Shown piece after piece: positions 20,147-36,028 of a stretch of DNA of 64,000 nt. Position numbers and translations under genes: made by a program. The first letter of the stretch is position 1; each line of letters begins with the position of its first letter. The DNA is from Escherichia coli (GTDB taxonomy: Bacteria; Pseudomonadota; Gammaproteobacteria; Enterobacterales; Enterobacteriaceae), in assembly GCF_050920415.1 (NCBI RefSeq), contig NZ_CP169309.1. One strand, written 5' to 3'. Below the pieces are notes generated by a model. It had not been told where the DNA came from. It worked only from the letters and a program-made list of their open reading frames with translations, and made no database searches.

Positions 20147-20233
20147 AAGTGGCTCCCTCAAGCCACTTCCTTTAGGAGCACAACCTTGCTTCTAACTATA
20201 TAAACCTTCTGTTATATATTACCCTTTATTTTT

Positions 20234-20259: not shown

Positions 20260-20285
20260 ATAACTTTTAGTAAACAACTGGCATA

Positions 20286-20669
20286 TTAATTAGAGTTATT
20301 AACAACGATATCCATCTCTAACCGGATATCTAATGCCATTAACATCCCTTCAATTATACCCTCAGCCTTCTGTAACCTTTTCCCGATATAACCATCAGAG
20401 CAGCAATGCTTACCTGCCAGTGACATGAATGTCATACCGACTACATAATAATCTACTAATAAATCGTGCAAATCGCTGTTGTTCTTTTTCAGACGGGCCA
20501 TGCACCCGCAAATGATCATCGCGTCATCGTCACAACATTGCGGGCGAGATTTTACTTTTGAAGTAATTAATCCCTTAAAACCGGCGGCAATGGACGACCA
20601 GGTCACATCTTCATGATTATTAGCCGCCCACGCTCCCCAACGCTCAAGAACCATCTGAATATCACGCAT
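20286..20669 (-). CDS. Q: late-gene antiterminator Q (phage-82 / DLP12 QuuD type)
   Basis: Track ORF 20286-20684; contains [34 protein letters not shown]...[18 protein letters not shown]... (127 aa from this Met); Cys cluster consistent with a zinc-binding Q. Confidence 0.8.
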
Positions 20670-20751
20670 CAACTTACTCCACAAAAATCAGACCAGAACG
20701 CCAATTACAAGCAAAAATCAACAAAATAGTATTAGTTGATTGTTATCTCTG

Positions 20752-20892
20752 ACTTCATACTCCTGCTCCTGTCAGGGTTTTGGCGTAATTCTTCAGTATC
20801 CGGTAATCGGTCAAAACAGAACCAGGAAAACGATATAAGCGCAGGCGCACCCAGCGGCGGCGAAGACGCTCTGCCATATAAGACTCAAACAT
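20752..20892 (-). CDS. ylcG: small DUF3927-like protein (DLP12 YlcG-like)
   Basis: Manual minus-strand translation [45 protein letters not shown]; start overlaps the rusA stop; below track size cutoff. Confidence 0.5.
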
Positions 20893-21254
20893 CATTCATT
20901 CCCCATTTCGGTGATGGTCAGTTCCAGCCTCCCACCTTTGGTAACAGGCATCTTCACAACGCGGTAATCAACGACCTGAGCATCATCCAGCCAGAAACCT
21001 GCTTTGGTGAGTGCGTCAAAAGCGGCCTTTTGCAGATTATCCAGGTCACGGCGACGGCGATCCGGCATGTGGCACTCAATACGGATTTTCACTGGCATAG
21101 CCAGGCCGATATCCAGCATTGCGTTTTTAATGATTCGGGTGACGTTATCGCGGTATGCCTGCCCTTCTGCGCTGATGTGTGTGCGCCCGCGATTATGGCG
21201 GTAATAGCGGTTATTGCTCGGAGGCCAGGGTAGTGTGATGTGGTAAGTATTCAC
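20892..21254 (-). CDS. rusA: Holliday junction resolvase RusA
   Basis: Track ORF 20892-21317; 120 aa from the GTG at 21252-21254 ([37 protein letters not shown]...); start overlaps the ybcO stop. Confidence 0.85.
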
Positions 21255-21541
21255 GCCTTGATTACCCCCTCTTTCAGCCAGATAACCTGCGTTCTCGCCA
21301 TACCTTCCAGCGCGCATTCTTTTGCGTACTCAGCATCGACAAAATGCGTGCGGCGGTCGATTTCGTCGTGACAGGCAGAACAGGCAATGGTGGCAATAAG
21401 GTCTGGCGGTTTAATACCGGTGCCGCACAATCCAGCCAGCCGGATATGTGCCAGTACAGACGTTTCAGGGTTGCCATTACATACGCCAGTGATTCTTACC
21501 TGGCATTCCCGACCACGCGCTGCTTTTCTCAAATCAGCCAT
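21251..21541 (-). CDS. ybcO: DUF1364-family protein (DLP12 YbcO-like, Cys-rich putative nuclease)
   Basis: Track ORF 21251-21580; start chosen at [35 protein letters not shown]... Confidence 0.7.
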
Positions 21542-21704
21542 GATTCCTCCTTGCTGCCAGTCGCAACCATTTTTTATCAACCAGGCTAGCGGTATATCCG
21601 AGCAGTGTTGGTATTTCGGATGGCTTCAGCTCAGGCTTACGCTTACGACGATTTGGTACTCTGTAGATGTGTCCGTTCATGACACGAATAAGCGGTGTAG
21701 CCAT
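21534..21704 (-). CDS. ninE: NinE-like small protein
   Basis: Manual translation [56 protein letters not shown]; ATG overlaps the ybcN stop (TAATG); below track size cutoff. Confidence 0.6.
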   Translation of the reverse strand: MATPLIRVMNGHIYRVPNRRKRKPELKPSEIPTLLGYTASLVDKKWLRLAARRNHG

Positions 21705-22159
21705 TACGCCTCCTGCTTGTCGCGCAGCAGCTGGAACTCGCAGCTCTGCGGAATAGTCAGGTGGCAGCCAATATTCATCGCCCAGGCTTCAACCTTACAC
21801 AGGAAGACATACATCTCTCCGGTATCAAGATCGGAAGTATGGCGTAACGACTGGATAGTAGTGATTTCGCCGGTTACGACATCAACCAGGTCCTTGGTTT
21901 CATAACCGAGGTATGTGTGTTTGAGAGCATCTTTTACCCAAGCTGGAGTGGCGAACGTTTTACCCCTGCTGATGAGGTATTCACTGATTTCGCTGTACCA
22001 CATGTGGCTGAGTGCATTCTGGGAAAGACTGCGTTTCTCACGCCACGGTTTAAGCACCATGCGAAAGCATTTGCCTTCCTCCAGATAAGGCTGGATCTGC
22101 TGGCCGATAGCGGTGAAGTTACCACGATGCAATTTGATGCCGTCTTGTGGGAGGTTCAC
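21704..22159 (-). CDS. ybcN: NinB-position protein (DLP12 YbcN-like)
   Basis: Track ORF 151 aa, GTG start preceded by [47 protein letters not shown]... Confidence 0.75.
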
Positions 22160-22193
22160 GCTTCACCTCCGCAGAGGTCAAACGCTGGATGCA

Positions 22194-22278
22194 AAAAATC
22201 GCAGGTGCATCTCTGCATCTGTGAAGGGAGAAGAGAGTTTGGATTGTATGTGCGCATAAACGTCCCCGTTTAGCGCAG
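22194..22278. repeat. ~85-bp direct repeat, copy A (partner at 24128-24211, ~93% identical)
   Basis: AAAAATCGCAGGTGCATCTCTGCATCTGTGAAGGGAGAAGAGAGTTTGGATTGTATGTGCGCATAAACGTCCCCGTTTAGCGCA; contains imperfect hairpin GCGCATAAACG-TCCCC-GTTTAGCGC. Confidence 0.75.
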
Positions 22279-22353
22279 AAGTCACCGGAGTTGTTCAAGC
22301 TCCAATGGCATGATTATGGCTGGTTGATTATTGGAAATCAAATGTGCTGAAAA

Positions 22354-22863
22354 TTAGTCTGCCAAGTCTTCCTCAGTCGCAACTGGGTAATTCCAAATAT
22401 CAAAAAAAGCTATAGCCTCCTGCCATTTGCTCCATAAGTTATCAAGTACTTGTGTAGGTTCCGTACTTTTAAAAACAGAATCAGCCGCATCACCGTTATG
22501 AACTTCCTCGTACAGTTCCATTATTAGCAGATTAACAAAGTACTGTTTCAACATTAATGCCTGATTACCTTCTTTCTGCTGGCTATCCTGCTTGATGAGC
22601 TCCATCGCCCGTACTAGGCACCTGATGATATCCGCTGCATCATTAACGCTCCATTCAGATCCGCGCTTATCTTTAGCTGATGAATTGGCTCTCTCAGCGC
22701 AAGCCTTTAAAGACTCATAAAGGTAAACTCTATTTTGTAGCTGCAGCGCTTTTTTTGACGTGCACCAACTTGCAAGCGCCGACCCCGCTGCGGCTAATGT
22801 GCCAAACGCAGAAATGCCTGCTGCTATTGCACTTAAGTCGGCACTGTCAAAGTTCCACATCAT
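22354..22863 (-). CDS. hypothetical protein with one N-terminal hydrophobic helix; no family recognised
   Basis: Track ORF 169 aa MMWNFDSADLSAIAAGISAFGTLAAAGSALASWCTSKK...; AT-rich upstream region; lies inside the repeat-bracketed cassette. Confidence 0.6.
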   Translation of the reverse strand: MMWNFDSADLSAIAAGISAFGTLAAAGSALASWCTSKKALQLQNRVYLYESLKACAERANSSAKDKRGSEWSVNDAADIIRCLVRAMELIKQDSQQKEGNQALMLKQYFVNLLIMELYEEVHNGDAADSVFKSTEPTQVLDNLWSKWQEAIAFFDIWNYPVATEEDLAD

Positions 22864-23036
22864 CGTTACACCTTATATAAACACCCCTCAGTAATATCCA
22901 ATAAGGTATGTGAACAATCAATATAATTTATATCCGTATCGGCACATAGCGATTTTAATGCTACTGATAATGGTATCTTTTAGATTATATCGTCCAGTTC
23001 CAGTACCCGTATTTTATGAAATGGACTCGCACATTA

Positions 23037-23078
23037 CCAAAAAAAATGCCAGCACTTCCGTCATCGCAGAATGCTGGC
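23037..23078 (-). terminator. putative rho-independent terminator downstream of the Bro-N-like gene
   Basis: Minus strand: GCCAGCA...TGCTGGC stem followed by ATTTTTTTTGG. Confidence 0.45.
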
Positions 23079-23098
23079 AGTATTTCTAACTAGTGACT

Positions 23099-23707
23099 TT
23101 ATTGCAACAGATTCTGACGGAAATATGGTAACACACGACTCCACTTATCATCCTGCCACGGTTGGAATTTTACATGCGCCGTTTCTCTGGCAAGGATTTC
23201 TCGCGCCCTGTTGAGTATCCGAGGATATTCTTGTTCGATTGAAGTGAATCTACCTGCTTCGCGATGCTCTGCGACCTGAAGAAGGGGCGTAACGTTCTGG
23301 CAGGCGGTTAACATCGTATCACTTGCTCGCCATAACCAGGCGAGTGTGCAAAGTTCGTTATCAGTGAATTGTTTTGTGATTGGGGATTGTTGAACTTCTC
23401 GATCGAGAATATCCAGAACCCAGCGGCGGAATTCTTTGGCCACAGGAGTACGAGCAAACATGGCGATCAAATGGGCTCCGCGAAGGCTAAATACTCGAGA
23501 CTCCTGCATTCCACGAGGGGTGGTCACTTTGACCACCCTTGTCATCATATCTGTGAATTCATCTGAGTGCCGAGAGTAAATGCGCTGAACTGCTTTATCG
23601 TCCGCATATTCCAGTGCTAAACCAACTTCAGTGGCAGTAAGCCAAATTCTGTTATTGTGGCAAATCGGGGTAAACGTCGTTTTGTGGAATGCTAATTGAG
23701 TAGTCAT
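23099..23707 (-). CDS. Bro-N / antirepressor-like domain protein
   Basis: Track ORF 202 aa MTTQLAFHKTTFTPICHNNRIWLTATEVGLALEYADDKAVQRIYSRHSDEFTD...; N-terminal region resembles Bro-N/KilA-N phage regulatory domains (pattern recognition only). Confidence 0.55.
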   Translation of the reverse strand: MTTQLAFHKTTFTPICHNNRIWLTATEVGLALEYADDKAVQRIYSRHSDEFTDMMTRVVKVTTPRGMQESRVFSLRGAHLIAMFARTPVAKEFRRWVLDILDREVQQSPITKQFTDNELCTLAWLWRASDTMLTACQNVTPLLQVAEHREAGRFTSIEQEYPRILNRAREILARETAHVKFQPWQDDKWSRVLPYFRQNLLQ

Positions 23708-23970
23708 AGTATCACCTCATCAGGTTAACCATCACCACCAACGACGCCAATCGACTGGTGGTGAACTGTGTAAGGTTGGCGTAACCGGCTACTCAAACCC
23801 GGCGCTTCCGAAGAAGCCCTCACACAGCCCACCATAATTTGGGCATAGCCGTGCTTAGCGCACAAAAAAACCGCTTAACGCGGTATGCGTTGAGTAGTAT
23901 CCCGGGACGCCAATCCCGTGTGCCGATTTTGCGGCAACGCACAGAATATAGCGCCGGATAAATCATGTCG

Positions 23971-24060
23971 TCAACCCCAGTAAATGGACACCATGATGAT
24001 CACAGCCATAGCTGCTACAACAGTTACAACTACCTCAGGCCAAAACATAACGATTTCCAT
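23971..24060 (-). CDS. candidate 29-aa hydrophobic micro-protein
   Basis: Manual translation MEIVMFWPEVVVTVVAAMAVIIMVSIYWG*, preceded by AGGTGA about 5 nt upstream; single predicted TM helix; below track size cutoff. Confidence 0.3.
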   Translation of the reverse strand: MEIVMFWPEVVVTVVAAMAVIIMVSIYWG

Positions 24061-24127
24061 ATCACCTTTAGCCGCCAGACGAATAGAGACTCCCAATTCT
24101 GGCTGTCGAAGTAAAACACCGAATGTA

Positions 24128-24211
24128 AAAAATCGTAGGTGCATTTCTGCATCTGTGAATGGAGATGAGAGTTTGGATTGTGTGTGCGCATAAACGTCCC
24201 CGTTTAGCGCA
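24128..24211. repeat. ~85-bp direct repeat, copy B (partner at 22194-22278)
   Basis: AAAAATCGTAGGTGCATTTCTGCATCTGTGAATGGAGATGAGAGTTTGGATTGTGTGTGCGCATAAACGTCCCCGTTTAGCGCA; about 6 mismatches versus copy A. Confidence 0.75.
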
Positions 24212-24519
24212 ACCCCACCACCGGGTGTTCAGGCCGACAGTAACTATATTATTCCCTACTGATTTTTGAAAATCAAAGGTCTTTATACGTCACACGAGAG
24301 CAAATATTTCCGAAGAAGAAACCTTTCGCCTTGAAAGGATAAAGAGTTCATTTCATAAATTGAAATATTCAATAAGAATATTGCAAAAAATGAAATTATT
24401 TACTAGCGAGTCTATCTAACTGATAATTATGAAGATTGTAAGCGGTAGCAATCACCCGCATACACATTGAACAGGATTTAATACAAAACGTCTTAAATTG
24501 TCCGTAAGGAATAGCACGA

Positions 24520-26022
24520 ATGACTCAAACTCCTCTATTACTTGCAATCATATTTTTATTGGTTGTTCTTGTTCTTTATATAGCTGCAATCAAACGCATC
24601 AAAAAAATACAATTAGAATTAAGTGATAGCAATCAAAAAAATGAAGAATACAAATCTCGCTTTGCAGATTATTTTAATGTAGAAGAAGAATGTAAGAAGC
24701 TTATTGAGAAAACAGAGCAAGAATGCTCCATAATAAAAGAAGAATCCCTAAAAGTAAAAGAAAATGCCAATAATGAACTAACAAACACCATTGAAAAAAT
24801 GGATGGTATCAATAAACAAATCCAAGAGCTAAGAAGAACTTATAAAGAGAAGAAAGAAATATATGATAAACTAGTAAGGCAAATTTCTATTTATTCAGAA
24901 GATGTTGAGCTAGCCGAACTAGGATTTTACGAACCTCATTTTAATTTTGAAGATTCAGAGCAATTTAAAAACAAAATAAAATCCATCAGGGATGAACAGA
25001 AATTAATGCTGCGGGATAAAACCCACTCTGGCGCAGTATATTGTACAACCCAATGGACTGTTGAAGGCTCTCGAGCAGAGGGTAAAAAAATGACAGACAG
25101 AAATATCAGGCTAACTACTAGAGCATTTAATAATGAATGTGATGCTGCAATTAGCAATTGCACGTGGAAAAACATCACTAAAATGGAAGAACGCATCACA
25201 AAGGCATTTGAGGCCATAAATAAACTAAACGAGCAAAATCACATATATATAAACACTAAATACCTCAATAAAAAACTTGAGGAATTGTGGCTTACCCATG
25301 AATATCGTGAGCAAAAACAGAAAGAAAAAGAAGAACAGGCAGAAATAAGGGCACAAATGAGAGAGGAGGAGCGTGCACAACGAGAAATAGAAAAGGCCAT
25401 GCAAGACGCAGAGGCAGAAGAGCGCCGTTATAAAAAAGCAATTGAAGCTGCAAGAAAGGAAATGGAAAAAGTTACTGGTGACATGAAGCAGCGCCTCGAA
25501 AATCGCATTGCCGAACTAGAACAGAGTTTGTCGCAGGCTGAATCAAAGCATCAAAGAGCATTATCCATGGCACAACAAACCAAACAAGGTCATGTTTATA
25601 TTATTTCGAACATAGGTTCTTTTGGGGAGAATGTTTATAAAATAGGCATGACACGACGTCTTGATCCGCAAGACCGTGTAAATGAGCTCGGTGATGCATC
25701 TGTTCCTTTTATTTTTGATGTACATGCCATGATTTATTCGGAGGACGCTCCATCATTAGAAAAAAAACTACATGATGTCTTCGATAAAAAGAGAGTCAAT
25801 CTTGTAAATCGTAGAAAAGAGTTTTTCTATGTTACTCTGGATGAGATCAAAGAAGCTGTTAAAAAACACTCTGATTCAGAAATTGAATTTATTGAGACAG
25901 CAGTCGCAAAAGACTTTAATGAGTCATTGGCTATTCGTAATCATGAAAATAAAAAAAGTGACAACAGCAACTCATCAATTATACCTGAGCGAAAAACCCC
26001 AGAGTTTGCAGATGCAATTTAA
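24520..26022 (+). CDS. membrane-anchored coiled-coil protein with C-terminal GIY-YIG/T5orf172-like domain (DUF4041-like architecture); candidate defence moron
   Basis: Track ORF 500 aa: N-terminal TM helix (LLLAIIFLLVVLVLYIAAI), ~300 residues Lys/Glu-rich coiled coil, then GHVYIISNIGSFGENVYKIGMTRRLDPQDRVNELG...EKKLHDVF...RKEFFYV; RBS AAGGAA; strongly AT-rich; opposite strand to flanking phage genes. Confidence 0.8.
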   Translation: MTQTPLLLAIIFLLVVLVLYIAAIKRIKKIQLELSDSNQKNEEYKSRFADYFNVEEECKKLIEKTEQECSIIKEESLKVKENANNELTNTIEKMDGINKQIQELRRTYKEKKEIYDKLVRQISIYSEDVELAELGFYEPHFNFEDSEQFKNKIKSIRDEQKLMLRDKTHSGAVYCTTQWTVEGSRAEGKKMTDRNIRLTTRAFNNECDAAISNCTWKNITKMEERITKAFEAINKLNEQNHIYINTKYLNKKLEELWLTHEYREQKQKEKEEQAEIRAQMREEERAQREIEKAMQDAEAEERRYKKAIEAARKEMEKVTGDMKQRLENRIAELEQSLSQAESKHQRALSMAQQTKQGHVYIISNIGSFGENVYKIGMTRRLDPQDRVNELGDASVPFIFDVHAMIYSEDAPSLEKKLHDVFDKKRVNLVNRRKEFFYVTLDEIKEAVKKHSDSEIEFIETAVAKDFNESLAIRNHENKKSDNSNSSIIPERKTPEFADAI

Positions 26023-26270
26023 TTAATTTGTAGTAGCAATAAAGCAGGCATCGTTGAGAATATTTTGTCAGCGATGCTTACTTCTCTAACAAAAACGGTG
26101 ATTACCAACGAACTAACGGACTTCAGGTAATCATAAGACAAATGGAACGACTCTCCGGTGATTAGATCCCTGCAATAACAGTAATTTTCTACTAACTGAA
26201 AAATCTTTAACTGCCGCTCCTATTTCTAAGCTGACTGCTAGATTACATGGTGTGTTACCGATGAAAACCG

Positions 26271-26573
26271 TCACAGCAAGTTTAAGTTCATATCTCCATA
26301 CACTGCCAACACTCGTTTCATCGCGGCACTCTGGCGACACTCCTTGAAAATCAGATTCGTGCTCACCTTTCCTTCCCGTTCTTCCCTGGTAGCGAACCGG
26401 TAATACACCGTTCGCCAGACCTTACCATCAACGACCAAGATTCCTGCCCGTGCCATTTTAGCCGCAGCCTGATTTATACTGGTTACTGTTGCGCCTGTTA
26501 CCGCAGCAACGTCCTGCGCACAGAAGCTCTTATGCGTCCCCAGGTAATGAATAATTGCCTCTTTGCCCGTCAT
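26271..26573 (-). CDS. ren: Ren protein (lambda Ren-like)
   Basis: Track ORF 100 aa MTGKEAIIHYLGTHKSFCAQDVAAVTGATVTSINQAAAKMARAGILVVDGKVW... Confidence 0.85.
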   Translation of the reverse strand: MTGKEAIIHYLGTHKSFCAQDVAAVTGATVTSINQAAAKMARAGILVVDGKVWRTVYYRFATREEREGKVSTNLIFKECRQSAAMKRVLAVYGDMNLNLL

Positions 26574-27271
26574 ACAGTTGCTCCTTTCAGTCCGAACTTC
26601 GCTTTGATTTCTGCGATCTTCGCCAGAGCCTGTGCACGATTTAGAGGTCTACCGCCCATGACAGGAAGTTGTTTTACTGGTTCAGGTATCGCCTCACCAC
26701 GGTTAATTCGCGCGGTCATACAAGTCAGTTCATCGGCAGCCTTGCGCCGTAATTCCGCATCAGTAAGCGCATTGGCCCGCATGTTCTGATACAGGTTGGT
26801 AACCAGCCAGTAGTGCGCGTTTGATTTCCACGGATAAGACTCTGCATCTGGATACAGGCCACGTTTCCGGCAATACTCGTAAACCATATCAACCAGCTCG
26901 CTGGCGTTTGGCAGCCCGGCGGTAACGGATGCTTCTTCCCGGCACCAGGCAACAAACTGCCCGGGTGATGGCAGGAATGGTCGATTCTGCCGACGGGCTA
27001 CGCGCATTCCTGCGTCAACCTGTTCCATCGTGGTGATCCCGTTTTCCCGGAAAGCCAGAACCCACTGGCGGCGGATTTCGTTCAGTTCGTTCTGGTCCCG
27101 GTTAGCCAGGCTCGCCGGGAAAGTTGCCAGTAACTGGCTGAACACACCATTGATGATCTGCGCTACCTGTTGTACCTGCGGCTTTTCGTCGTACTGTTCC
27201 GGCATGTTGTTGGCGATCCGGCGCATCTGCTCACGGTCAAAGTTAACCATCTGTGCGGCGATGTTTTTCAT
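26570..27271 (-). CDS. P: replication protein P (DnaB helicase loader, lambda P-like)
   Basis: Track ORF 233 aa MKNIAAQMVNFDREQMRRIANNMPEQYDEKPQVQQVAQIINGVF... Confidence 0.9.
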   Translation of the reverse strand: MKNIAAQMVNFDREQMRRIANNMPEQYDEKPQVQQVAQIINGVFSQLLATFPASLANRDQNELNEIRRQWVLAFRENGITTMEQVDAGMRVARRQNRPFLPSPGQFVAWCREEASVTAGLPNASELVDMVYEYCRKRGLYPDAESYPWKSNAHYWLVTNLYQNMRANALTDAELRRKAADELTCMTARINRGEAIPEPVKQLPVMGGRPLNRAQALAKIAEIKAKFGLKGATV

Positions 27272-28287
27272 AAATCCACCCCGTAAATCCAGTCAGTGTT
27301 TGTCAGGTCGAGTTTTGATTTTCCGGCTATCACGCCAGCCTGTTGCTTGTTACGGTTGATTTCGAGTTGGGTCCACTTGTCGCGGAGTTTGGCCGGACTT
27401 AGCACGTTACCGGACCAGAAGTTGTCCTGGCATGCCCAGCGGAACAGCACGCACATGTCGCGGTGGTTACGGCCGTCACGTTCACGCATCAGGCGGATAT
27501 CGTTAGCCCACCCTGCAAAATTCGGTTTTCTGGCTGATGGCGCGATGGTCTTCACCATGTCAAACATCCACTCTGCGGCGGTCAGGTCTTCTGCTGTCCC
27601 CCACCTGCTGCCGCTCTGAATTGCAGCATCTGGTTTCTCCACAGGAAGATCGTTTTCTGGTTGGTCAGAGGATTCGCCAGAATTCTCGGACGAAAAAGGT
27701 TTTATATTGTCTTTTGTTAGTTTGTCTTTTGTGTTTACCTGATTCGGGTAAGTGCCTTTACCTGATTTGGGTAAACTTTTCTTACCTGATTCAGGTAAAT
27801 TTACCTCTTTCAGGTAAACTTTATTTTTCTTACCTGATTCGGGTAATGTTGACCATTCACTGACCACATTATTAATGCCGATATTCCGCCCGCTCTGAAT
27901 AAAAATCCCACGCTTTACCAGAACACTTTTTGCAGCAGAACACTTGTGCGGCAATATCCCGGTCAACTCGGAAAGTTGCTCGTTGCTCACCCAATCCAGT
28001 TTTTTATTAAAGCCATATGTTTTGCGCATGACAGCCAGGAAGACCAGAAGCTGGTGCTGTGTTAATCCGGCCAGCATCACAGCTTCCAGCAACTCATTTG
28101 CAATGCGCGTATAACCATCATCGAGATCTGCCACGCGCGGCTCCTTTTGTGCCGCATCCGGCACTGGAAAATTGAATATCTCAGCAGTGTTTGCCATAAT
28201 TCCTCCCGCAATGAGTGTGTTACGATTTGCACCTGAAAGTCGGTTCTGTTCCCGCAGACCGACTTTCGCCATTTCTGAACCTGTCAT
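27268..28287 (-). CDS. O: replication initiator O (lambdoid O-like; origin iterons inside the gene)
   Basis: Track ORF 339 aa (start uncertain; internal Met at MANTAEIFNF...); C-terminal part resembles the lambda O P-interaction domain; iterons at 27735-27846 lie within the coding sequence. Confidence 0.8.
   Translation of the reverse strand: MTGSEMAKVGLREQNRLSGANRNTLIAGGIMANTAEIFNFPVPDAAQKEPRVADLDDGYTRIANELLEAVMLAGLTQHQLLVFLAVMRKTYGFNKKLDWVSNEQLSELTGILPHKCSAAKSVLVKRGIFIQSGRNIGINNVVSEWSTLPESGKKNKVYLKEVNLPESGKKSLPKSGKGTYPNQVNTKDKLTKDNIKPFSSENSGESSDQPENDLPVEKPDAAIQSGSRWGTAEDLTAAEWMFDMVKTIAPSARKPNFAGWANDIRLMRERDGRNHRDMCVLFRWACQDNFWSGNVLSPAKLRDKWTQLEINRNKQQAGVIAGKSKLDLTNTDWIYGVDL
27698..27846. 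repeat. ori: replication origin: five palindromic iterons (TACCTGATTCGGGTA-like) plus adjacent AT-rich segment
   Basis: Copies at ~27736-27750, 27759-27773, 27783-27797, 27802-27816, 27831-27845; AT-rich stretch 27698-27734 on the downstream side relative to O. Confidence 0.65.
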
Positions 28288-28823
28288 ATTGCCCCCAGCA
28301 TGGTGGTCACCATCGCCATTAATGGACCAGCCAGATCCGGGTCCACACGAAACATCGACACAATACCTTCACTCATTTCCTTCAGTTTCTGGTGGCGTGG
28401 TGCGTTGAGAATGACAGCCTGTTTTGCCTCACTGAGTTCCTTTTCCATTTCAGCCAACCGAGTCATGAAGCTATCCTGCTCAACCAGGTAACCGCGATAT
28501 TCCAGCGGTAGTACCGCCAGAATTGCCGGGGTCAGTTCACGCACGTTATTTCGGTATTTTTCAGAATCGAATTTGTTATCGAGGAAGCGGAACAGCTTCT
28601 GGCGTGCACGGCTGACATCATCAGGGAAATCGATGGTGCCGTCGCCCTGCTCCCGATACTCATTCACAATGAGTGCGGCAACGACATCCTGATTATCTAC
28701 AGCCGACCAGGCGCGGACGGCATCACGGATTTTTTCGTGGCCTGGAGCTTGTTTTGTTTGAGAACGATTTATCACCGCAGTCGGAATAAATCCGCTAGTC
28801 TGTTGGTATGTAAGTGGTTGCAT
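28284..28823 (-). CDS. YdaT-family protein (occupies the cII position)
   Basis: Track ORF 179 aa MQPLTYQQTSGFIPTAVINRSQ...ALIVNEYREQGDGTIDFP...RELTPAILAVLPLEYRGYL; resembles Rac YdaT by recollection. Confidence 0.5.
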   Translation of the reverse strand: MQPLTYQQTSGFIPTAVINRSQTKQAPGHEKIRDAVRAWSAVDNQDVVAALIVNEYREQGDGTIDFPDDVSRARQKLFRFLDNKFDSEKYRNNVRELTPAILAVLPLEYRGYLVEQDSFMTRLAEMEKELSEAKQAVILNAPRHQKLKEMSEGIVSMFRVDPDLAGPLMAMVTTMLGAI

Positions 28824-28892
28824 AATTGACTCCTTTAGTTTGAATTGACTGTTAAGTTGATTGCTTATTGTTAAAGAGCGTGAAATGGAAAT

Positions 28893-29123
28893 TTAAGCTG
28901 CGTTCTTTTCGGTGTGTGGAAACAACTTCGGAAGATCCGGGCGAATCTGGTATGCCTTCACAACTCCACCAGTAGCCGTAACAATGCTGCCGACATGTTC
29001 AGGGGATACCTTTGCTTTGTTGTGAAGCCACTTATAGACGGCCTGCTGTGAAACTTCGCAGGCATCGCCTAGTTTCTTTTGTGAACCAACGATATTGATC
29101 GCTGTTTTGATTGCTGGGTTCAT
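28893..29123 (-). CDS. cro: Cro/YdaS-type HTH regulator (cro analogue)
   Basis: Track ORF 76 aa MNPAIKTAINIVGSQKKLGDACEVSQQAVYKWLHNKAKVSPEHVGSIVTATGG...; divergent from the repressor gene. Confidence 0.65.
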   Translation of the reverse strand: MNPAIKTAINIVGSQKKLGDACEVSQQAVYKWLHNKAKVSPEHVGSIVTATGGVVKAYQIRPDLPKLFPHTEKNAA

Positions 29124-29227
29124 AACAACCTCCGTGGTTAATCCGAATCAAGATTAAAACTATGGTTGTTTTTAGTCAACAACCATTTTCGTTTGATGAA
29201 ATAAAACCTTGGTTGTACATTTGATCT
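29124..29227. promoter_or_regulatory. immunity-region operator/promoter region between divergent cro-like and cI genes
   Basis: Inverted repeats with half-site TGGTTGT/ACAACCA (e.g. ATGGTTGTTTTTAGTCAACAACCAT); same half-site recurs in the putative OL/PL region. Confidence 0.5.
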
Positions 29228-29917
29228 ATGAAAACAACACTCTCAGAAAGACTTAAAGAAGCCAGATTAGCGCGAGGCCTTACACAAAAGGCGCTTGGGG
29301 ATTTGGTCGGGGTTAGCCAAGCTGCTATTCAGAAAATCGAAACAGGGAAAGCTAACCAAACAACTAAAATCGTGGAGATCGCGAACGCTTTGGGTGTGCG
29401 CGCAGAATGGTTATCTTCTGGCGTTGGAAATATGTCAGACAGTACAGTGCAACCAATACAATCAACTGTCAGCCATTCCAAATACTTCAAAATTGACGTT
29501 CTTGATATAGAAGTCAGTGCCGGGCCAGGTGTAATCAACCGTGAGTTTGTAGAAGTTCTACGCTCGGTTGAGTACTCGTTTGACGATGCTCGTCACATGT
29601 TCGATGGCAGGAAGGCGGAAAATATCCGCATCATTAACGTGCGAGGTGACAGCATGTCAGGGACGATCGAACCAGGTGACCTGCTGTTCGTTGATATCAC
29701 TGTTAAATCTTTCGACGGTGATGGCATCTATGCGTTTCTGTACGACGACACTGCCCATGTAAAACGTCTTCAAATGATGAAGGATAAGCTGCTGGTTATC
29801 TCTGATAACAAGAGCTACTCGCCGTGGGACCCGATCGAGAAAGACGAGATGAACCGGGTGTTCATATTCGGTAAGGTCATTGGAAGCATGCCGCAGACGT
29901 ACAGGAAGCATGGTTAA
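29228..29917 (+). CDS. cI: CI-type repressor (XRE-family HTH + S24 LexA-like autopeptidase domain)
   Basis: Track ORF 229 aa MKTTLSERLKEARLARGLTQKALGDLVGVSQAAIQKIETGK...GDSMSGTIEPGDLLFVD...KRL; HTH and Ser/Lys-dyad motifs. Confidence 0.85.
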   Translation: MKTTLSERLKEARLARGLTQKALGDLVGVSQAAIQKIETGKANQTTKIVEIANALGVRAEWLSSGVGNMSDSTVQPIQSTVSHSKYFKIDVLDIEVSAGPGVINREFVEVLRSVEYSFDDARHMFDGRKAENIRIINVRGDSMSGTIEPGDLLFVDITVKSFDGDGIYAFLYDDTAHVKRLQMMKDKLLVISDNKSYSPWDPIEKDEMNRVFIFGKVIGSMPQTYRKHG

Positions 29918-30146
29918 TTTATCTACGACTTAAGGGAGCGAAGGTTAAGGTTTATACCACTCGGATTAGATATTGCACTAAATTCTCTATAAGAACGCCA
30001 AATCTGTTTGCATATTTCAGTAAATATTCTCGTTGTTAGCTGAGATTTGTTGCTACTGTCAGCAAAATGTCCCCCTATCTCGTAGCGGTTTTTATTTCGA
30101 ATCATTATGTTAAGATGTTTCTGATTATAATGAATGGAAACATAAA

Positions 30147-30527
30147 ATGAGAAAAATCCTAATCGCTGCCATGATGGCATCTGTATTGGCTGGGTGTGCT
30201 TCTTCAGGCAACCAGCAACTCAAAAATGAAACTGAAATTAGTGTCCAGTCTAAACTTCAGGAAGGTAAAACAACCAAGAATGAGGTTAAATCTTACTTTG
30301 GTTCTCCTGATGCTGTTTCATATACTGACAGTGGAAACGAGATCTGGAAGTACGCCTTTGCAAAAGTAAAAGTTAATGGCACCACTTTTATTCCATTCTA
30401 TGGATTATTCCATAATGGAACGAACGGTACGAAAAAAGAACTTACTATTCTTTTTAACGATGACACGATTAAGAAATACACAATGTCAGAAACCCAAATA
30501 AACTCGAAATCAGGTTGGGCTGACTGA
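30147..30527 (+). CDS. lipoprotein of unknown function, located directly downstream of cI (rex position)
   Basis: Track ORF 126 aa MRKILIAAMMASVLAGCASSGNQQLKNETEISVQSKLQEGK...; lipobox LAGC; AT-rich; followed by a terminator. Confidence 0.7.
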   Translation: MRKILIAAMMASVLAGCASSGNQQLKNETEISVQSKLQEGKTTKNEVKSYFGSPDAVSYTDSGNEIWKYAFAKVKVNGTTFIPFYGLFHNGTNGTKKELTILFNDDTIKKYTMSETQINSKSGWAD

Positions 30528-30535
30528 TAATCATA

Positions 30536-30560
30536 CCCGGCAACCGCGCCGGGTTTTCTT
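30536..30560 (+). terminator. putative rho-independent terminator after the lipoprotein gene
   Basis: CCCGGCAACCGCGCCGGG followed by TTTTCTTTTCC. Confidence 0.55.
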
Positions 30561-30684
30561 TTCCTCCCCCTCATAACTCATACCGTCCAAAAAACCACCA
30601 CACCTCACTTCAGTTATCGCTATGCGATGCAAGTCACAAAATAAATCCATCCTAAATACAACCAGTTATATTTAAAACAACCGA

Positions 30685-30731
30685 CAAAACAACTTTTGTT
30701 GTTGACGATAAAACAACTATAGTTTTAAATA
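30685..30731 (+). promoter_or_regulatory. putative PL promoter with overlapping OL operators
   Basis: TTGACG (30702-30707), 17-bp spacer, TTAAAT (30725-30730); flanked by AACAACTTTTGTTGTT and AAAACAAC matching the OR half-site. Confidence 0.4.
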
Positions 30732-30803
30732 AATTCATCGCAACGACACAACGATACGGTAACCACCTGTTTCACCGTGGCGATGACCGCTTAGATCCGC
30801 AGT

Positions 30804-31214
30804 TTGAATTTCAGCAGGCTTCGGGGAGTGCGAGGGGTGAAACGGACGCGTGAACGTCGGTGTGACCAGCTGAAATCAACACAACACTTTATACCTCAGT
30901 CGCTTCAACGAGGCGGCTTAGTTATGACAACCGGCGGCCATCCACCGCCTGAATACGCGCAGAAGTCTCTATATGTTCAGCAGCCCAGCTTACGGGCAGG
31001 AGTTTTTATGGTTCATCAACATTACGGAACGCAGACCGTTAATCGCGGTGCGGTCATGCCAGGAATGCTGGTCAAACACAAAGATGGTACCTGGACTGCA
31101 TCAGCTAATTTACGCGGACGGCTTTATCTGCATCGCGGCATCGAGCGCACTTATACCCGTGATTTGCTCGTGGAAGTTTTTCTCGACGGACGCGGTAACG
31201 GCCTCAATCACTAA
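30804..31214 (+). CDS. hypothetical early-left protein; possibly an N-type antiterminator if a non-ATG start is used (ATG-initiated product would be 30924-31214)
   Basis: Track ORF 136 aa with TTG start; in-frame arginine-rich segment [12 protein letters not shown] resembles N-protein ARM motifs; first ATG ([14 protein letters not shown]...) has GAGG about 10 nt upstream; ends 75 nt before gam. Confidence 0.4.
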
Positions 31215-31289
31215 TCCCCTTTCCTGTTTTCCTAATCAGCCTGGCATTTCGCGGGCGATATTTTCACAGCCATTTTCAGGAGTTCAGCC

Positions 31290-31586
31290 ATGAACGCTTA
31301 TTACATTCAGGATCGTCTTGAGGCTCAGAGCTGGGCGCGTCACTACCAGCAGATCGCCCGTGAAGAGAAAGAGGCAGAACTGGCAGACGACATGGAAAAA
31401 GGCCTGCCCCAGCACCTGTTTGAATCGCTATGCATCGATCATTTGCAACGCCACGGGGCCAGCAAAAAAGCCATTACCCGTGCGTTTGATGACGATGTTG
31501 AGTTTCAGGAGCGCATGGCAGAACACATCCGGTACATGGTTGAAACCATTGCTCACCACCAGGTTGATATTGATTCAGAGGTATAA
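31290..31586 (+). CDS. gam: Gam (RecBCD inhibitor), short GamS form
   Basis: Track ORF 98 aa [52 protein letters not shown]... Confidence 0.9.
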
Positions 31587-31591
31587 AACGG

Positions 31592-32377
31592 ATGAGTACA
31601 GCACTCGCAACGCTGGCAGGGAAGCTGGCTGAACGTGTCGGCATGGATTCTGTCGACCCACAGGAACTGATCACCACTCTTCGCCAGACGGCATTTAAAG
31701 GTGATGCCAGCGATGCGCAGTTCATCGCATTGTTGATCGTCGCCAACCAGTACGGCCTTAATCCGTGGACGAAAGAAATTTACGCCTTCCCTGATAAGCA
31801 GAACGGCATCGTTCCGGTGGTGGGCGTTGATGGCTGGTCCCGCATCATCAATGAAAACCAGCAGTTTGATGGTATGGACTTTGAGCAGGACAATGAATCC
31901 TGCACATGCCGGATTTACCGCAAGGACCGCAATCATCCGATCTGCGTTACCGAGTGGATGGATGAATGCCGCCGCGAACCATTCAAAACCCGCGAAGGCA
32001 GAGAAATCACGGGGCCGTGGCAGTCGCATCCCAAACGGATGTTACGTCATAAAGCCATGATTCAGTGTGCCCGTCTGGCCTTCGGATTTGCTGGTATCTA
32101 TGACAAGGATGAAGCCGAGCGCATTGTCGAAAATACCGCATACACTGCAGAACGTCAGCCGGAACGCGACATCACTCCGGTTAACGATGAAACCATGCAG
32201 GAGATTAACACTCTGCTGATTGCCCTGGATAAAACATGGGATGACGACTTATTGCCGCTCTGTTCCCAGATATTTCGCCGCGACATTCGCGCATCGTCAG
32301 AACTGACACAGGCCGAAGCAGTGAAAGCTCTCGGATTCCTGAAACAGAAAGCCACTGAGCAGAAGGTGGCAGCATGA
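31592..32377 (+). CDS. bet: Bet (Red-beta single-strand annealing protein)
   Basis: Track ORF 261 aa [48 protein letters not shown]... Confidence 0.95.
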
Positions 32378-33054
32378 CACCGGACATTATCCTGCAGCGT
32401 ACCGGGATCGACGTGAGAGCTGTCGAACAGGGGGATGATGCATGGCACAAATTACGGCTCGGCGTCATCACCGCTTCAGAAGTTCACAACGTGATAGCAA
32501 AGCCCCGCTCAGGAAAGAAGTGGCCTGACATGAAAATGTCCTACTTCCACACCCTGCTTGCCGAGGTTTGCACCGGTGTGGCTCCGGAAGTTAACGCTAA
32601 AGCACTGGCCTGGGGAAAACAGTACGAGAACGACGCCAGAGCCCTGTTTGAGTTTACTTCCGGCGTGAATGTTACTGAATCCCCGATCATCTATCGCGAC
32701 GAAAGTATGCGCACCGCCTGCTCTCCCGATGGTTTATGCAGTGACGGCAACGGCCTTGAACTGAAATGCCCGTTTACCTCCCGGGATTTCATGAAATTCC
32801 GGCTCGGTGGTTTCGAGGCAATAAAATCGGCTTACATGGCCCAGGTGCAGTACAGCATGTGGGTGACGCGAAAAGATGCCTGGTACTTTGCCAACTATGA
32901 CCCACGAATGAAGCGTGAAGGCCTGCATTATGTCGTGATTGAGCAGGATGAAAAGTACATGGCGAGTTTTGACGAGATGGTGCCGGAGTTCATCGAAAAA
33001 ATGGACGAGGCACTGGCTGAAATTGGTTTTGTATTTGGGGAGCAATGGCGATGA
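32374..33054 (+). CDS. exo: Exo (Red-alpha 5'-3' exonuclease)
   Basis: Track ORF 226 aa [49 protein letters not shown]... Confidence 0.95.
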
Positions 33055-33233
33055 AGCATCCTCACGATAATATCCGGGTAGGCGCGATCACTTTCGTCTA
33101 CTCCGTTACAAAGCGAGGCTGGGTATTTCCCGGCCTTTCTGTTACCCGAAATCCCCTGAAAGCACAGCGGCTGGCTGAGGAGATAAATAATAAACGGGGA
33201 GCTGTATGCACAAAGCATCTCCTGTTGAGTTAA
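33045..33233 (+). CDS. small hypothetical protein (lambda orf60a-position)
   Basis: Track ORF 62 aa [50 protein letters not shown]...; start overlaps the exo stop. Confidence 0.55.
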
Positions 33234-33397
33234 GAACGAGCATTGAGATGGCACATAGCCTCGCTCAAATTGGAGTCAGGTTTGTGCCAATACCAGTAGA
33301 AACAGACGAAGAATTTCATACGTTAGCCGCATCCCTTTCACAAAAGCTGGAAATGATGGTGGCGAAAGCAGAAGCAGATGAGAGAGACCAGGTATGA
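33206..33397 (+). CDS. small hypothetical protein (lambda orf63-like)
   Basis: Track ORF 63 aa [50 protein letters not shown]... Confidence 0.55.
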   Translation: MHKASPVELRTSIEMAHSLAQIGVRFVPIPVETDEEFHTLAASLSQKLEMMVAKAEADERDQV

Positions 33398-33473
33398 CAA
33401 CCACTGAATGCATTTTTCTGGCAGCGGGCTTCATATTCTGTGTGCTTATGCTTGCCGACATGGGACTTGTTCA

Positions 33474-33689
33474 ATGACACATCAGCAAGAAAACGCCCTT
33501 CGCAGTATTGCCCGTCAGGCTAATTCTGAAATCAAAAAAGCCAGACAGCAGTTCCCGGATAAAAACGTCGATGATATTTGCCGTAGCGTACTGAAGAAGC
33601 ACCGCGAAACGGTAACGCTGATGGGATTCACACCGACTCATTTAAGCCTGGCGATCGGCATGTTAAACGGCGTCTTTAAGGAACGGTGA
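33474..33689 (+). CDS. small hypothetical protein (lambda orf61-like)
   Basis: Track ORF 33408-33689; start chosen at internal ATG 33474 (MTHQQENALRSIARQANSEIKKARQQFPDKNVDD...). Confidence 0.5.
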   Translation: MTHQQENALRSIARQANSEIKKARQQFPDKNVDDICRSVLKKHRETVTLMGFTPTHLSLAIGMLNGVFKER

Positions 33690-33787
33690 GCATGAAAAAC
33701 AAAATCATCATGGAGCTACAGGCTCCTTTTTTATTATTCGCATTCACCCTCAAGCGTATTAACCAACAATTCAGGGATTAATGAAAG

Positions 33788-34006
33788 ATGGCAGACATCA
33801 TTGATTCAGCATCAGGAATTGAAGAATTACAGCGCAACACAGCAATAAAAATGCGCCGCCTGAACCACCAGGCTATATCTGCCACTCATTGTTGTGAGTG
33901 TGGCGATCCGATAGATGAACGAAGACGCCTGGCCGTTCAGGGTTGTCGGACTTGTGCAAGTTGCCAGGAGGAGATCGAACTTAAGAACAAACAATGGGGA
34001 CTGTGA
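33788..34006 (+). CDS. DksA/TraR-family C4 zinc-finger protein
   Basis: Track ORF 72 aa MADIIDSASGIEELQRNTAIKMRRLNHQAISATHCCECGDPIDERRRLAVQGCRTCASCQEE...; CxxC...CxxC motif. Confidence 0.75.
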   Translation: MADIIDSASGIEELQRNTAIKMRRLNHQAISATHCCECGDPIDERRRLAVQGCRTCASCQEEIELKNKQWGL

Positions 34007-34053
34007 TGGCCTCAAAGCAGCAAATTTCAACATCGTCCAACTGAGGTGTAAAA

Positions 34054-34332
34054 ATGTTCAGAATCATTTTTCCTAACACCTGGTACGTCGACCACCACGG
34101 CACTCCCTGCAAAATCCTGCGTTCTACCCACAACAAAGTTCACTACATCCGAAAAGGCAGAACATGTATCGCCAGCATGTTCCGCTTTAATCATGACTTT
34201 GAACCTGTGAATAAAGCTGATGCAGATCGGATAGCAGAAGAGATCGAAACGGCAGAACACATTAAGAAGTTACGTGACATGCGTTCAAAAAGCAGAGGTA
34301 ACCATGGAATCATACAGCCTCACACTCGATGA
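34054..34332 (+). CDS. hypothetical protein
   Basis: Track ORF 92 aa MFRIIFPNTWYVDHHGTPCKILRSTHNKVHYIRKGRTCIASMFRFN...; no family recognised. Confidence 0.4.
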   Translation: MFRIIFPNTWYVDHHGTPCKILRSTHNKVHYIRKGRTCIASMFRFNHDFEPVNKADADRIAEEIETAEHIKKLRDMRSKSRGNHGIIQPHTR

Positions 34333-34675
34333 GGCCTGTCAGTTTCTTAAGATATCCAGACCAACCGCCACCAACTGGATACGAACAGGCCGCCTACAGG
34401 CAACACGTAAAGATCCAACCAAGCCAAAATCTCCTTACCTCACAACACGGCAAGCCTGCATTGCGGCGCTTCAGTCTCCGCTGCATACTGTCCAGGTGAG
34501 CGCGGGTGATGGCATAACAGAGGAAAGAAAATGTCACTCTTCCGCAGAAATGAAATATGGTATGCCTCGTATTCGCTCCCGGGCGGGAAACGAATTAAGG
34601 AATCTCTTGGCACAAAGGACAAGCGGCAAGCTCAGGAGTTGCACGACAAGCGAAAAGCAGAACTCTGGCGAGTAG
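34304..34675 (+). CDS. xis: excisionase-like protein (AlpA/Xis-type HTH), overlapping int start
   Basis: Track ORF 34274-34675; [37 protein letters not shown]... has the HTH pattern of AlpA/Xis-family excisionases; the open frame runs ~145 nt into int. Confidence 0.5.
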
Positions 34676-35694
34676 AAAAGCTAGGGGATTTACCTGATGT
34701 CACTTTTGAAGAGGCCTGCCTAAGATGGCTTGAGGAAAAAGCTGATAAAAAATCTCTCGATTCAGATAAAAGCCGGATTGAGTTCTGGCTTGAACATTTT
34801 GAGGGTATAAGGCTTAAAGATATCTCGGAGGCAAAGATTTACTCTGCTGTAAGCAGAATGCATAACAGAAAGACGAAAGAAATATGGAAACAGAAAGTTC
34901 AGGCCGCCATCAGGAAAGGTAAAGAACTGCCTGTTTATGAACCAAAGCCAGTATCAACTCAGACAAAGGCAAAGCATCTTGCCATGATAAAGGCCATTCT
35001 CCGTGCTGCAGAACGCGACTGGAAGTGGCTGGAAAAAGCGCCTGTCATCAAGATACCAGCGGTCAGAAACAAGCGAGTCAGATGGCTGGAAAAGGAGGAA
35101 GCAAAACGCCTTATTGATGAGTGCCCCGAACCACTGAAATCTGTCGTCAAGTTTGCGCTGGCAACTGGTCTGAGAAAGTCGAACATCATAAATCTGGAAT
35201 GGCAACAAATCGACATGCAGCGACGAGTTGCCTGGGTGAATCCAGAAGAGAGCAAATCAAACCGCGCCATTGGTGTGGCGCTAAACGATACCGCCTGTAA
35301 AGTGTTGCGTGATCAAATAGGCAAGCATCACAAATGGGTGTTTGTACATACCAAGGCGGCTAAGCGAGCAGATGGAACATCAACGCCTGCGGTCAGGAAG
35401 ATGCGCATCGACAGCAAGACATCATGGCTATCAGCTTGTCGTCGTGCAGGAATTGAAGATTTCCGTTTCCATGACCTCAGACACACCTGGGCAAGCTGGC
35501 TGATTCAGTCAGGCGTCCCATTATCAGTGCTTCAGGAAATGGGCGGATGGGAGTCCATAGAAATGGTTCGTAGGTATGCTCACCTTGCGCCTAATCATTT
35601 GACAGAGCATGCGAGGAAAATAGACGACATTTTTGGTGATAATGTCCCAAATATGTCCCACTCTGGAATTATGGAGGATATAAAGAAGGCGTAA
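34531..35694 (+). CDS. int: tyrosine site-specific integrase
   Basis: Track ORF 387 aa [47 protein letters not shown]...[39 protein letters not shown]; catalytic R..HxxR..Y signature; ends 15 nt from the tRNA 3' end. Confidence 0.95.
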
Positions 35695-35730
35695 CTGATT
35701 GAATTGTAATGGCGCGCCCTGCAGGATTCG
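35695..35730. other. prophage-host junction (att site overlapping the 3' end of argU); exact core not determinable without the distal copy
   Basis: int stop at 35694 and tRNA 3' end (CCA) at 35710; the second att copy is off-window. Confidence 0.5.
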
Positions 35731-35786
35731 AACCTGCGGCCCACGACTTAGAAGGTCGTTGCTCTATCCAACTGAGCTAAGGGCGC
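35710..35786 (-). tRNA. argU: tRNA-Arg (anticodon UCU)
   Basis: Reverse complement reads GCGCCCTTAGCTCAGTTGGATAGAGCAACGACCTTCTAAGTCGTGGGCCGCAGGTTCGAATCCTGCAGGGCGCGCCA; D- and T-arm consensus, anticodon loop CUUCUAA, 3' CCA. Confidence 0.9.
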
Positions 35787-36028
35787 GTTGATACCGCAAT
35801 GCAGTGTAATCGCGTGAATTATACGGTCAACCCTTGCTGAGTCAATGGCTTTTGATCTGGTTGCTGAACAAGTGAACGACCACGTCTGATTTTCTGATTT
35901 ATTTCGCTATAGCGGCAAACAAACGCACCCCGCTGCGCATCTGAATCAAGAAAACCCGTATTTTCATGTATCAAAGTACAATTTCCAGCCCTAACGGAAA
36001 ATTGTCCTACCCTGTGAGACTGGTAACT

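Follow-up and report, generated by a model that had tools for sequence, protein, structure and literature searches.

The early-left operon of the lambdoid prophage analyzed here raises the question of what follows its promoter PL: an antiterminator of the N type in an unusual guise, or an operon that is expressed by other means. The preliminary description of this locus had reported a single open reading frame (ORF) with an arginine-rich segment in the place of N, cIII and kil, and had proposed either an N-like antiterminator with a non-canonical start or a different mechanism of early antitermination. To answer this question we analyzed the ORF, its leader and the surrounding prophage within the window, by which we mean the whole stretch of 64,000 nucleotides of Escherichia coli DNA. 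The prophage is integrated at argU, the classical leftward operon corresponds to the plus strand of the window, and the features that frame the ORF are the following.

26570-27271, minus strand: replication gene P.
27268-28287, minus strand: replication gene O.
28284-28823, minus strand: YdaT-type CII-like activator.
28893-29123, minus strand: cro, followed by OR/PR.
29228-29917, plus strand: cI.
30147-30527, plus strand: BamE-like lipoprotein moron with its own terminator at 30535-30554.
30535-30554, plus strand: intrinsic terminator that ends the cI/BamE-like lipoprotein transcript just upstream of PL, a 7-bp GC stem followed by TTTCTTTTCC.
30702-30730, plus strand: PL promoter (TTGACG-17-TTAAAT) in OL-type repeats, read directly.
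30804-31214, plus strand: the ORF between PL and gam, 136 aa from a TTG start.
31290-31586, plus strand: gam (RecBCD inhibitor), identified by PHROG 259 at 1e-60 and the annotation of an identical phage.
34531-35694: int.
35710-35786, minus strand: tRNA-Arg(tct), adjoining int.

Downstream of gam the order of genes is bet, exo, homologues of lambda-type orf60a/63/61, a gene for a DksA-like protein, xis and int. Phage PhiR26_1, for which E. coli MG1655 is recorded as the host, was 100% identical in both segments compared, one of 751 nt around the ORF and one of 341 nt around cro. The PL hexamers reported earlier were confirmed, and the assignment of PL/OL is credible because the surrounding sequence (TTGTTGACGATAAAACAACTATAGTTTTAAAT) almost duplicates that of the divergent PR/OR at ~29150-29185 (GTTGTTGACTAAAAACAACCATAGTTTTAATC) across cI, and because homology between prophages of different immunity breaks at ~30737, the predicted transcript start. 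Of the claim that 30804-31214 is the sole ORF before gam, the part that stood is that it is the only sizeable one on the plus strand, while an out-of-frame ORF (30973-31293) overlaps it.

Closer examination of this ORF revealed that its C-terminal half is Kil, and two features define the gene.

31008-31214, plus strand: kil, encoding a 68-aa FtsZ (cell-division) inhibitor of the KilR/Kil family, as judged from PHROG, NCBIfam, phi80 Kil and RefSeq.
30998-31002, plus strand: Shine-Dalgarno sequence AGGAG, 5 nt before ATG 31008, read directly.

The first in-frame ATG (30924) would indeed give 96 aa as described, and the second in-frame ATG at 31008, preceded by the strong AGGAG that resembles the style of the gam ribosome binding site, had been overlooked. 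The ORF matched PHROG 294 ('Kil protein for bacterial septation inhibition') with E=1.2e-38, and the NCBIfam profile NF008465 ('FtsZ inhibitor', KilR) aligned over positions 1-70 of 73, essentially its full length, with residues 69-136 of the long ORF (E=1.8e-17), beginning exactly at the Met of ATG 31008. Since the score of 63 bits lies under the cut-off of 92 bits curated for the Rac-type subfamily, the Kil of the window is placed by its sequence in a sister subfamily of Rac-type KilR. BLASTP against phi80 Kil (69 aa) gave 41% identity over residues 5-68. Rac KilR and phi80 Kil resemble the window Kil in family, by profile as well as pairwise comparison, in length (73 and 69 versus 68 aa), in the N-terminal pattern M-(V/I)-x-x-H-(Y/F)-G and in their early-left place upstream of recombination genes; the N-termini read MVHQHYG in the window, MVNQHYG in HK225 and MIAHHFG in Rac, while phi80 Kil starts M-I-N-H-Y-G. 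With 68 aa the product falls within the ~50-75 aa of Kil-type small proteins, and its gene lies 76 nt upstream of gam-bet-exo. For four genomes, RefSeq annotates a 207-nt CDS with exactly the bounds 31008-31214 (WP_000233576.1, 'phage encoded cell division inhibitor protein'), and the leader of one of these genomes is 100% identical to that of the window. No match was found with Pfam for the 136-aa ORF, even at E up to 10, or with PADLOC for Kil and the lipoprotein. The kil product is thus by homology a member of the FtsZ-inhibitor family, a known kind of gene that is already correct in RefSeq, and the claim that a kil-like ORF is missing had to be withdrawn. Expression of Rac KilR blocks FtsZ ring formation and gives filamentation (PMC5793797, PMC12482147).

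The remaining 68 codons upstream of ATG 31008 were assessed in a set of sequence variants. For this set, 84 loci encoding this Kil (80 from IMG/VR and four annotated records) were reduced to 65 unique upstream sequences of 330 nt. The 80 loci had been picked for a 99-100% identical Kil, a selection of which the upstream region itself is free, and the near-exclusive third-position variation within kil is, given this choice of loci, no independent control for codon periodicity. A stop codon or frameshift disconnects the extension from kil in 22 of the 65 variants, namely by TAG at 30897-30899 (C30897 to T) in 18, a 5-nt insertion (TCAAC) near 30875 in three and a 37-nt insertion (duplication) in one, while the long frame stays open in the other 43. 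Variable sites between 30804 and 31007 are distributed over codon positions 1, 2 and 3 as 12, 5 and 7 and exhibit no third-position bias, and the extension had no match in Pfam, PHROGs or NCBIfam. The 68 codons before ATG 31008 are non-coding and show no conservation as a protein-coding frame. We therefore consider it highly probable that the 136-codon ORF is an artefact in which kil is read together with its leader, the two forming one frame because no stop codon separates them in this variant.

One potential start within the extension deserves separate mention.

30837-30839, plus strand: GTG with GGAG 8 nt upstream, used as the start in some phage annotations (125-aa 'Kil', PhiR26_1).

The preliminary description had seen only poor or crowded Shine-Dalgarno spacing in this region, which does not apply to the GGAG at 30825-30828. 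In two variants GTG 30837 is replaced by ATG, in an ORF that ends after 20 codons, and this GTG is probably not a required start. The over-long 'Kil' call nevertheless persists in some phage records, including the 125 aa from GTG 30837 in the PhiR26_1 annotation. Since the GGAG is usable and 43 of the 65 frames are open, an extended Kil or a 20-aa arginine-rich peptide may be translated to some extent.

These data bear directly on the proposal of an N-like antiterminator, according to which translation from GTG 30837 or TTG 30804 would yield a 125- or 136-aa fusion of an arginine-rich motif (ARM) with Kil, or a ~20-aa arginine-rich peptide, that binds an RNA hairpin and modifies RNA polymerase. 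The 12-residue arginine-rich string is present in the upstream part of 30804-31214 as described, and its KRTRERR resembles TRRRERR, the core of lambda N, but arginine-rich heptads of such strength are common: those with at least four R and at least five R+K form 48 separate segments in the six-frame translation of the window versus ~24 in shuffled sequence, and the string is not distinctive as a hallmark of N. In favour of the proposal, GGAG precedes GTG 30837 at a suitable 8 nt, ATG replaces the GTG in two variants, synonymous changes account for four of the nine variable sites within codons 1-20, and the start has been adopted in some phage annotations. On the other hand, 18 variants have a stop at codon 21 and four more a shifted frame, and codon periodicity is lacking over the entire stretch from 30804 to 31007. 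N requires regions that bind NusA and RNA polymerase, and a 20-aa peptide is too short to have them. The search of N-family profiles that had been suggested as a check returned no N family from PHROGs, NCBIfam or Pfam for either the ORF or its N-terminal part, and the same was true of a 29-aa piece with the ARM and all small early-left ORFs against PHROGs. BLASTP against a lambda N sequence gave no alignment, a tblastn search with the ARM segment in 50,697 phage records found matches confined to the same leader family, and the PhiR26_1 record annotates no N. Homology to a non-antiterminator protein, together with proof that early transcription does without the ORF, had been named beforehand as the result that would speak against an N-like ORF, and such homology was clearly found to Kil/KilR, while the extension is broken, non-periodic and without an N family. 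We consider the N-like antiterminator extremely improbable.

The sites at which N would act were likewise searched for, and one element was detected.

28868-28880, minus strand: rrn-type boxA CGCTCTTTAACAA in the PR transcript, 12 nt past the cro stop codon.

This boxA is an exact match, at 28868-28879, to the consensus GCUCUUUAACAA and a putative Nus-factor loading site; the exact GCTCTTTAACAA has no other occurrence in the 64 kb. In comparison with lambda, the ORF of the window occupies the first place after PL that belongs to N and the boxA after cro that of nutR, but an N homologue, boxB, nutL and a conserved ORF are all absent from the window. No boxB-like hairpin follows the boxA after cro, the best 13-mer in the left leader matches boxA at 8 of 13 positions, and the PL and PR leaders share neither a motif of 9 nt or more nor a boxB-type hairpin. 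The cro boxA is missing from relatives that carry the same leader and kil together with a different immunity region. The suggested search of the leaders for boxA and boxB thus recovered a boxA only after cro and without boxB, and the earlier observations that the left leader contains neither a nutL (boxA/boxB pair) nor a cIII-like ORF were borne out. Overall, we found no N-family homology, no conserved ORF of ~100 aa with an ARM and no nut sites in both leaders, and the description of a compressed early-left operon without N and cIII was upheld.

With the coding potential upstream of kil set aside, the region between the PL start and kil was analyzed as an RNA leader, in which the following elements were distinguished in the 5' part.

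30737-31007, plus strand: untranslated PL leader (5' UTR of kil), ~271 nt, intergenic in RefSeq and with the frame interrupted in 22 of 65 variants.
30737-30784, plus strand: possible 5'-terminal stem AUCGCAAC ... GUUGCGAU, from RNAalifold on 36 variants.
30842-30861, plus strand: imperfect CG-rich hairpin ACGGACG-CGUGAA-CGUCGGU, from the sequence and the MFE and centroid folds.

Over its first ~150 nt (30737-30888), the leader is particular to this lineage of prophages. Only the first ~25 transcribed nt are similar to the PL transcripts of phi80, HK639 and HK225, and the likeness within the 5' 150 nt ends there; the local alignment of this initial sequence to HK639 scored 30 versus a maximum of 26 in 200 shuffles, while the alignments to phi80 and HK225 both scored 23, below shuffle maxima of 28 and 29, respectively. 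The in-frame translation of the hairpin at 30842-30861 is the RTRERR of the 'ARM', whose arginines stem from CGN triplets of this CG-rich hairpin read in this frame. An A/G polymorphism at 30842 preserves the pair (A-U or G-U), but compensatory changes in this putative element were not found among the variants. The helices of the 5' 150 nt in general exhibited one-sided pair-preserving changes and no compensatory pairs, and since the 30737-30784 stem likewise gave one-sided changes only among the 36 variants, its support is weak. The fold of the whole leader is no better than that of shuffles (z=+0.65), and the leader is moderately C-rich, with a C/G ratio of 1.3-1.6 over 30842-30991. Rfam covariance models searched over 28000-32000 at E up to 5 returned nothing for the leader and two chance-level matches elsewhere.

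A different picture emerged for the 3' ~120 nt of the leader, which are a module common to many lambdoid phages, conserved and paired. Its two hairpins span 30890-30949.

30890-30926, plus strand: hairpin 1, in which a lower stem UAUA/UAUG is topped by a middle stem of 2 bp and an upper stem of 9 bp formed by 30898-30906 and 30910-30918.
30933-30949, plus strand: hairpin 2, GGCGG-CCAUCCA-CCGCC, with stem and loop almost invariant in phi80, HK225, HK639 and phages of Enterobacter and Klebsiella.

The hairpins are separated by the linker ACAACC. Sensitive BLAST found 30888-30968 again in phi80, HK225, HK639 as well as Enterobacter and Klebsiella phages, each time with an intrinsic terminator on one side and kil or a different early-left gene on the other. 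Two scans of sequence collections yielded 201 instances of the motif with 39 unique variants of hairpin 1, and all 39 adopt the same three-tier fold with a lower stem CAUA/UAUG, a 2-bp middle stem and an upper stem of 8-10 bp. Pairing is kept through at least eight unrelated upper-stem sequences; seven of the eight upper-stem pairs are changed on both sides, and 99.1% of the alignment cells overall and 98.7% of those in the upper stem are paired, versus 35-56% with slid partners. The covariation score was 0.426 compared with 0.137 in shuffles (reached by 0 of 500) in an alignment that was anchored on the predicted loop of each sequence and hence favours structure, while the diversity of complementary stems is plain in the raw, unaligned sequences as well. 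Strong conservation of hairpin 2 was also seen across 214 instances picked by hairpin 1 alone. The CAG/TAG polymorphism that interrupts the long frame affects C30897, and the stop-making change is tolerated because it falls on this bulged C of hairpin 1; the ATG at 30924-30926 sits in the lower stem of the same hairpin. The loop of hairpin 2 had no convincing complementarity to nearby sequence, and hairpin 2 was labelled a terminator by the annotators of HK639. Searches of the searchable literature for the sequence string of the module and for PhiR phages gave no match, and the two-hairpin module is the only item that could not be placed in a described family.

The closest comparison is provided by phi80, in which the neighbourhood of the module is recorded as tL1, with the intrinsic terminator tL1A just before the module and the Rho-dependent tL1B ~120 nt after it. 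Positions 30920-30947 of the window match the phi80 tL1 region exactly over 28 nt, and both phages have the same two-hairpin architecture before kil, with a stem of hairpin 1 that differs in sequence in phi80 yet is still complementary. In phi80 the module follows N and tL1A, whereas the window has neither and the module begins ~150 nt after the PL start. The Rac prophage of K-12 carries the sRNA gene kilS upstream of kilR where the window has the module; the two are not homologous, and KilS was rejected as a homologue of the module.

Conservation of this kind could also be explained if the module were a mere recombination 'linker' for cassette swaps among lambdoid phages, with no function as RNA. 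It does lie at a mosaic junction of variable upstream cassettes and variable downstream genes, and these operons of phi80, HK639 and HK225 contain other conserved intergenic linkers as well, but a pure DNA linker gives no reason for pairing to persist through at least eight stem sequences, and we regard this explanation as rather unlikely. A leader peptide starting at ATG 30924 (MTTGGHPPP...), in which ribosomes stalled on the Pro run would control access of Rho or translation of kil, was rejected because deletions shift its frame and synonymous changes do not prevail, and is very unlikely. The ATG and the next 24 nt are conserved across distant phages, but the 214 instances chosen by hairpin 1 alone include deletions of 1 and 2 nt in codons 2-3, and their non-synonymous changes are many and synonymous ones few. 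A separate ORF of ~15-20 codons ending in TAA is found in phi80, HK225 and HK639, yet the conserved block downstream, GCGCAGAAGTCTTGT, is in different frames in different phages. GAG(G) is located 10 nt upstream of ATG 30924, but this potential Shine-Dalgarno sequence is not kept in the phi80 and HK639 types, and in the window both the ATG and the GAG are paired within hairpin 1. The PPP of MTTGGHPPP is a stall motif dependent on EF-P.

A cis-acting antiterminator RNA analogous to HK022 put, formed by the module (30890-30949) or the 5' hairpins and rendering polymerase resistant to termination, including that at 33712, was a further candidate for an antitermination system. N-less lambdoid phages are known, and one noted in PMC12315714 is supposed to use a put mechanism. 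Similar to HK022 and HK639, the prophage of the window is an N-less lambdoid with a structured RNA in its PL leader; the strongly conserved ~60-nt module has two stem-loops with clear covariation, and a terminator-like site is present downstream at 33712-33726. In contrast to the put systems, however, the core sequence patterns of put are absent, and a covariance model built from HK022 putL, HK022 putR and HK639 putL gave over 17000-36000 a best match of 7.4 bits (E ~0.8) that lies inside the O gene. A ~70-nt two-stem RNA with the put core after both PL and PR was not found; the module has no counterpart in the PR leader and no second copy in the PR transcript, and the complete leader gave no better fold than its shuffles. 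The module is moreover found in HK639, which has putL, and in phi80, which has N, where it is located after a terminator and not before one. A put analogue is accordingly unlikely.

The arrangement of terminators points to a simpler working of the left operon. In relatives, which include phi80, HK225, HK639 and many uncultured phages, one or more accessory cassettes precede the module, each closed by a GC hairpin and a T-run, and in almost every type other than that of the window the module is immediately preceded by a terminator. In the window type this terminator is missing, the cassettes are absent too, and what precedes CATAC is an unrelated sequence; on the plus strand between 30555 and 31238 no intrinsic-terminator pattern was detected before a weak site after kil. 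On the simplest reading, the 'compressed' operon reflects a missing N or moron cassette with its terminator, and PL transcription would reach kil-gam-bet-exo unaided. We infer that the left operon needs no antitermination, and that what sets it apart is a missing terminator, which in relatives has to be overcome by N or put, and not a new antiterminator. According to this model, with a cassette (N in phi80) and its terminator absent from the left operon of this lineage, PL would give rise to a transcript with an untranslated leader of ~271 nt from which kil would be translated at ATG 31008 behind AGGAG, and transcription would proceed into kil-gam-bet-exo without an N-type or put-type antiterminator. 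The long C-rich leader and the module would modulate kil, for example through Rho/NusG as for Rac kilR, which is held down by NusG-dependent termination (PMC5793797).

Several observations speak against a left operon free of antitermination. The 271-nt untranslated leader is a potential target of Rho, farther downstream the gene for the DksA-like protein, xis and int are preceded by the good terminator-like site at 33712-33726, and the exact boxA after cro suggests that Nus factors may be engaged in at least one early transcript.

Regarding the module itself, a role in limiting or timing kil expression is likely. We tentatively raise the possibility, which we hold to be less than even, that the two-hairpin module represents an undescribed class of cis-regulatory RNA in lambdoid early-left operons. 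A host factor such as Rho/NusG, an RNase or an RNA chaperone may in that case read the module and gate the toxic kil as well as the delayed-early genes after the first terminator. If this is true, the module would be the sole control element left between PL and kil in this N-less lineage.

The leader-kil module is nothing rare and was present in 2231 of 5426 complete E. coli genomes (~41%). Arginine-rich strings in the first ORF after PL are no evidence of N, especially when they arise from CG-rich palindromes, and several deposited phage genomes share the over-long 'Kil' call. A very common E. coli prophage module runs its early-left operon without N, nut or put, which is useful for modelling induction or the silencing of toxic prophage genes such as kil by Rho/NusG, and the conserved structured module provides a testable candidate for the control of kil expression.

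The first ~25 nucleotides transcribed from PL, AAT(T/C)CATCG(C/A)AACGA(C/A)ACA(A/T)CGATA, were common to phages of different immunity and form a small hairpin, UCG(A)...(U)CGA. The alignment of this start region with HK639 scored above all shuffles, and those with phi80 and HK225 did not exceed all shuffles. Further along the untranslated leader of kil, length polymorphisms consisted of local duplications, namely of TCAAC in three variants and of 37 nt in one, which suggest slippage during replication of the CAAC-rich stretch. Also conserved is a second intergenic linker, AAGCATTTCTCCCGCATCAGCGGGTAACGACAGAGGG, with the hairpin CCCGC-ATCA-GCGGG, common to HK639, phi80 and HK225. There it lies immediately 5' of the start codon in different early-left cassettes, and predicted ORFs of some uncultured phages even extend over it (...KAFLPHQRVTTEG...).

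Window 30731-30756, HK639 (L087) ~1270-1296, phi80 (L088) ~1741-1761, HK225 (L089) ~1243-1263: first ~25 nt transcribed from PL
Window 30870-30885 and L006 (sequence with a related leader) after 30933: leader length polymorphisms
L087 1950-2005, L088 2095-2150, L089 1760-1800 and 1985-2025: linker AAGCATTTCTCCCGCATCAGCGGGTAACGACAGAGGG
K-12 Rac prophage (L215) 6406-6503: sRNA gene kilS, with an intrinsic terminator at its end

In the K-12 annotation, kilS is placed ~175 nt upstream of the Rac gene kilR. This upstream RNA, with its terminal intrinsic terminator, has no homology to the kil leader of the window; different Kil lineages thus have different structured upstream RNAs.

Other features of the window:

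30147-30527, + strand: lipoprotein moron between cI and PL
30535-30554, + strand: the moron's own intrinsic terminator
28868-28880, - strand: exact rrn-type boxA CGCTCTTTAACAA, 12 nt past the cro stop
33712-33726, + strand: good intrinsic-terminator pattern, GGAGCTACAGGCTCC then TTTTTTATTA
~24520-26022, + strand: PD-lambda-1 anti-phage defence gene in the nin region, by correspondence with the annotation of the identical phage PhiR26_1
23945-23974: promoter-like site TTGACG-18-TATATT
23870-23884, - strand: strong terminator-like site, ACCGCGTTAAGCGGT then TTTTTTT, in the PR-to-Q interval

The moron, named 'outer membrane protein assembly factor BamE' in RefSeq, matches PHROG 3135 (unknown function) and gave no match in PADLOC. 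The cargo at this position differs among relatives, an example being the SIR2-family protein in O55:H7 RM12579. The boxA following cro was restricted to prophages of the same cro/immunity type as the window; no boxB-like hairpin was found with it, nor any partner of it in the left leader.

The terminator pattern at 33712-33726 occupies the gap between the orf61-like and DksA/TraR-like genes, 5' of xis and int, and would halt unmodified PL transcripts short of the integration genes. The PD-lambda-1 gene is oriented opposite to the strand of the PR operon. The terminator-like site at 23870-23884, preceded by the promoter-like site, is relevant to how Q is reached without N.
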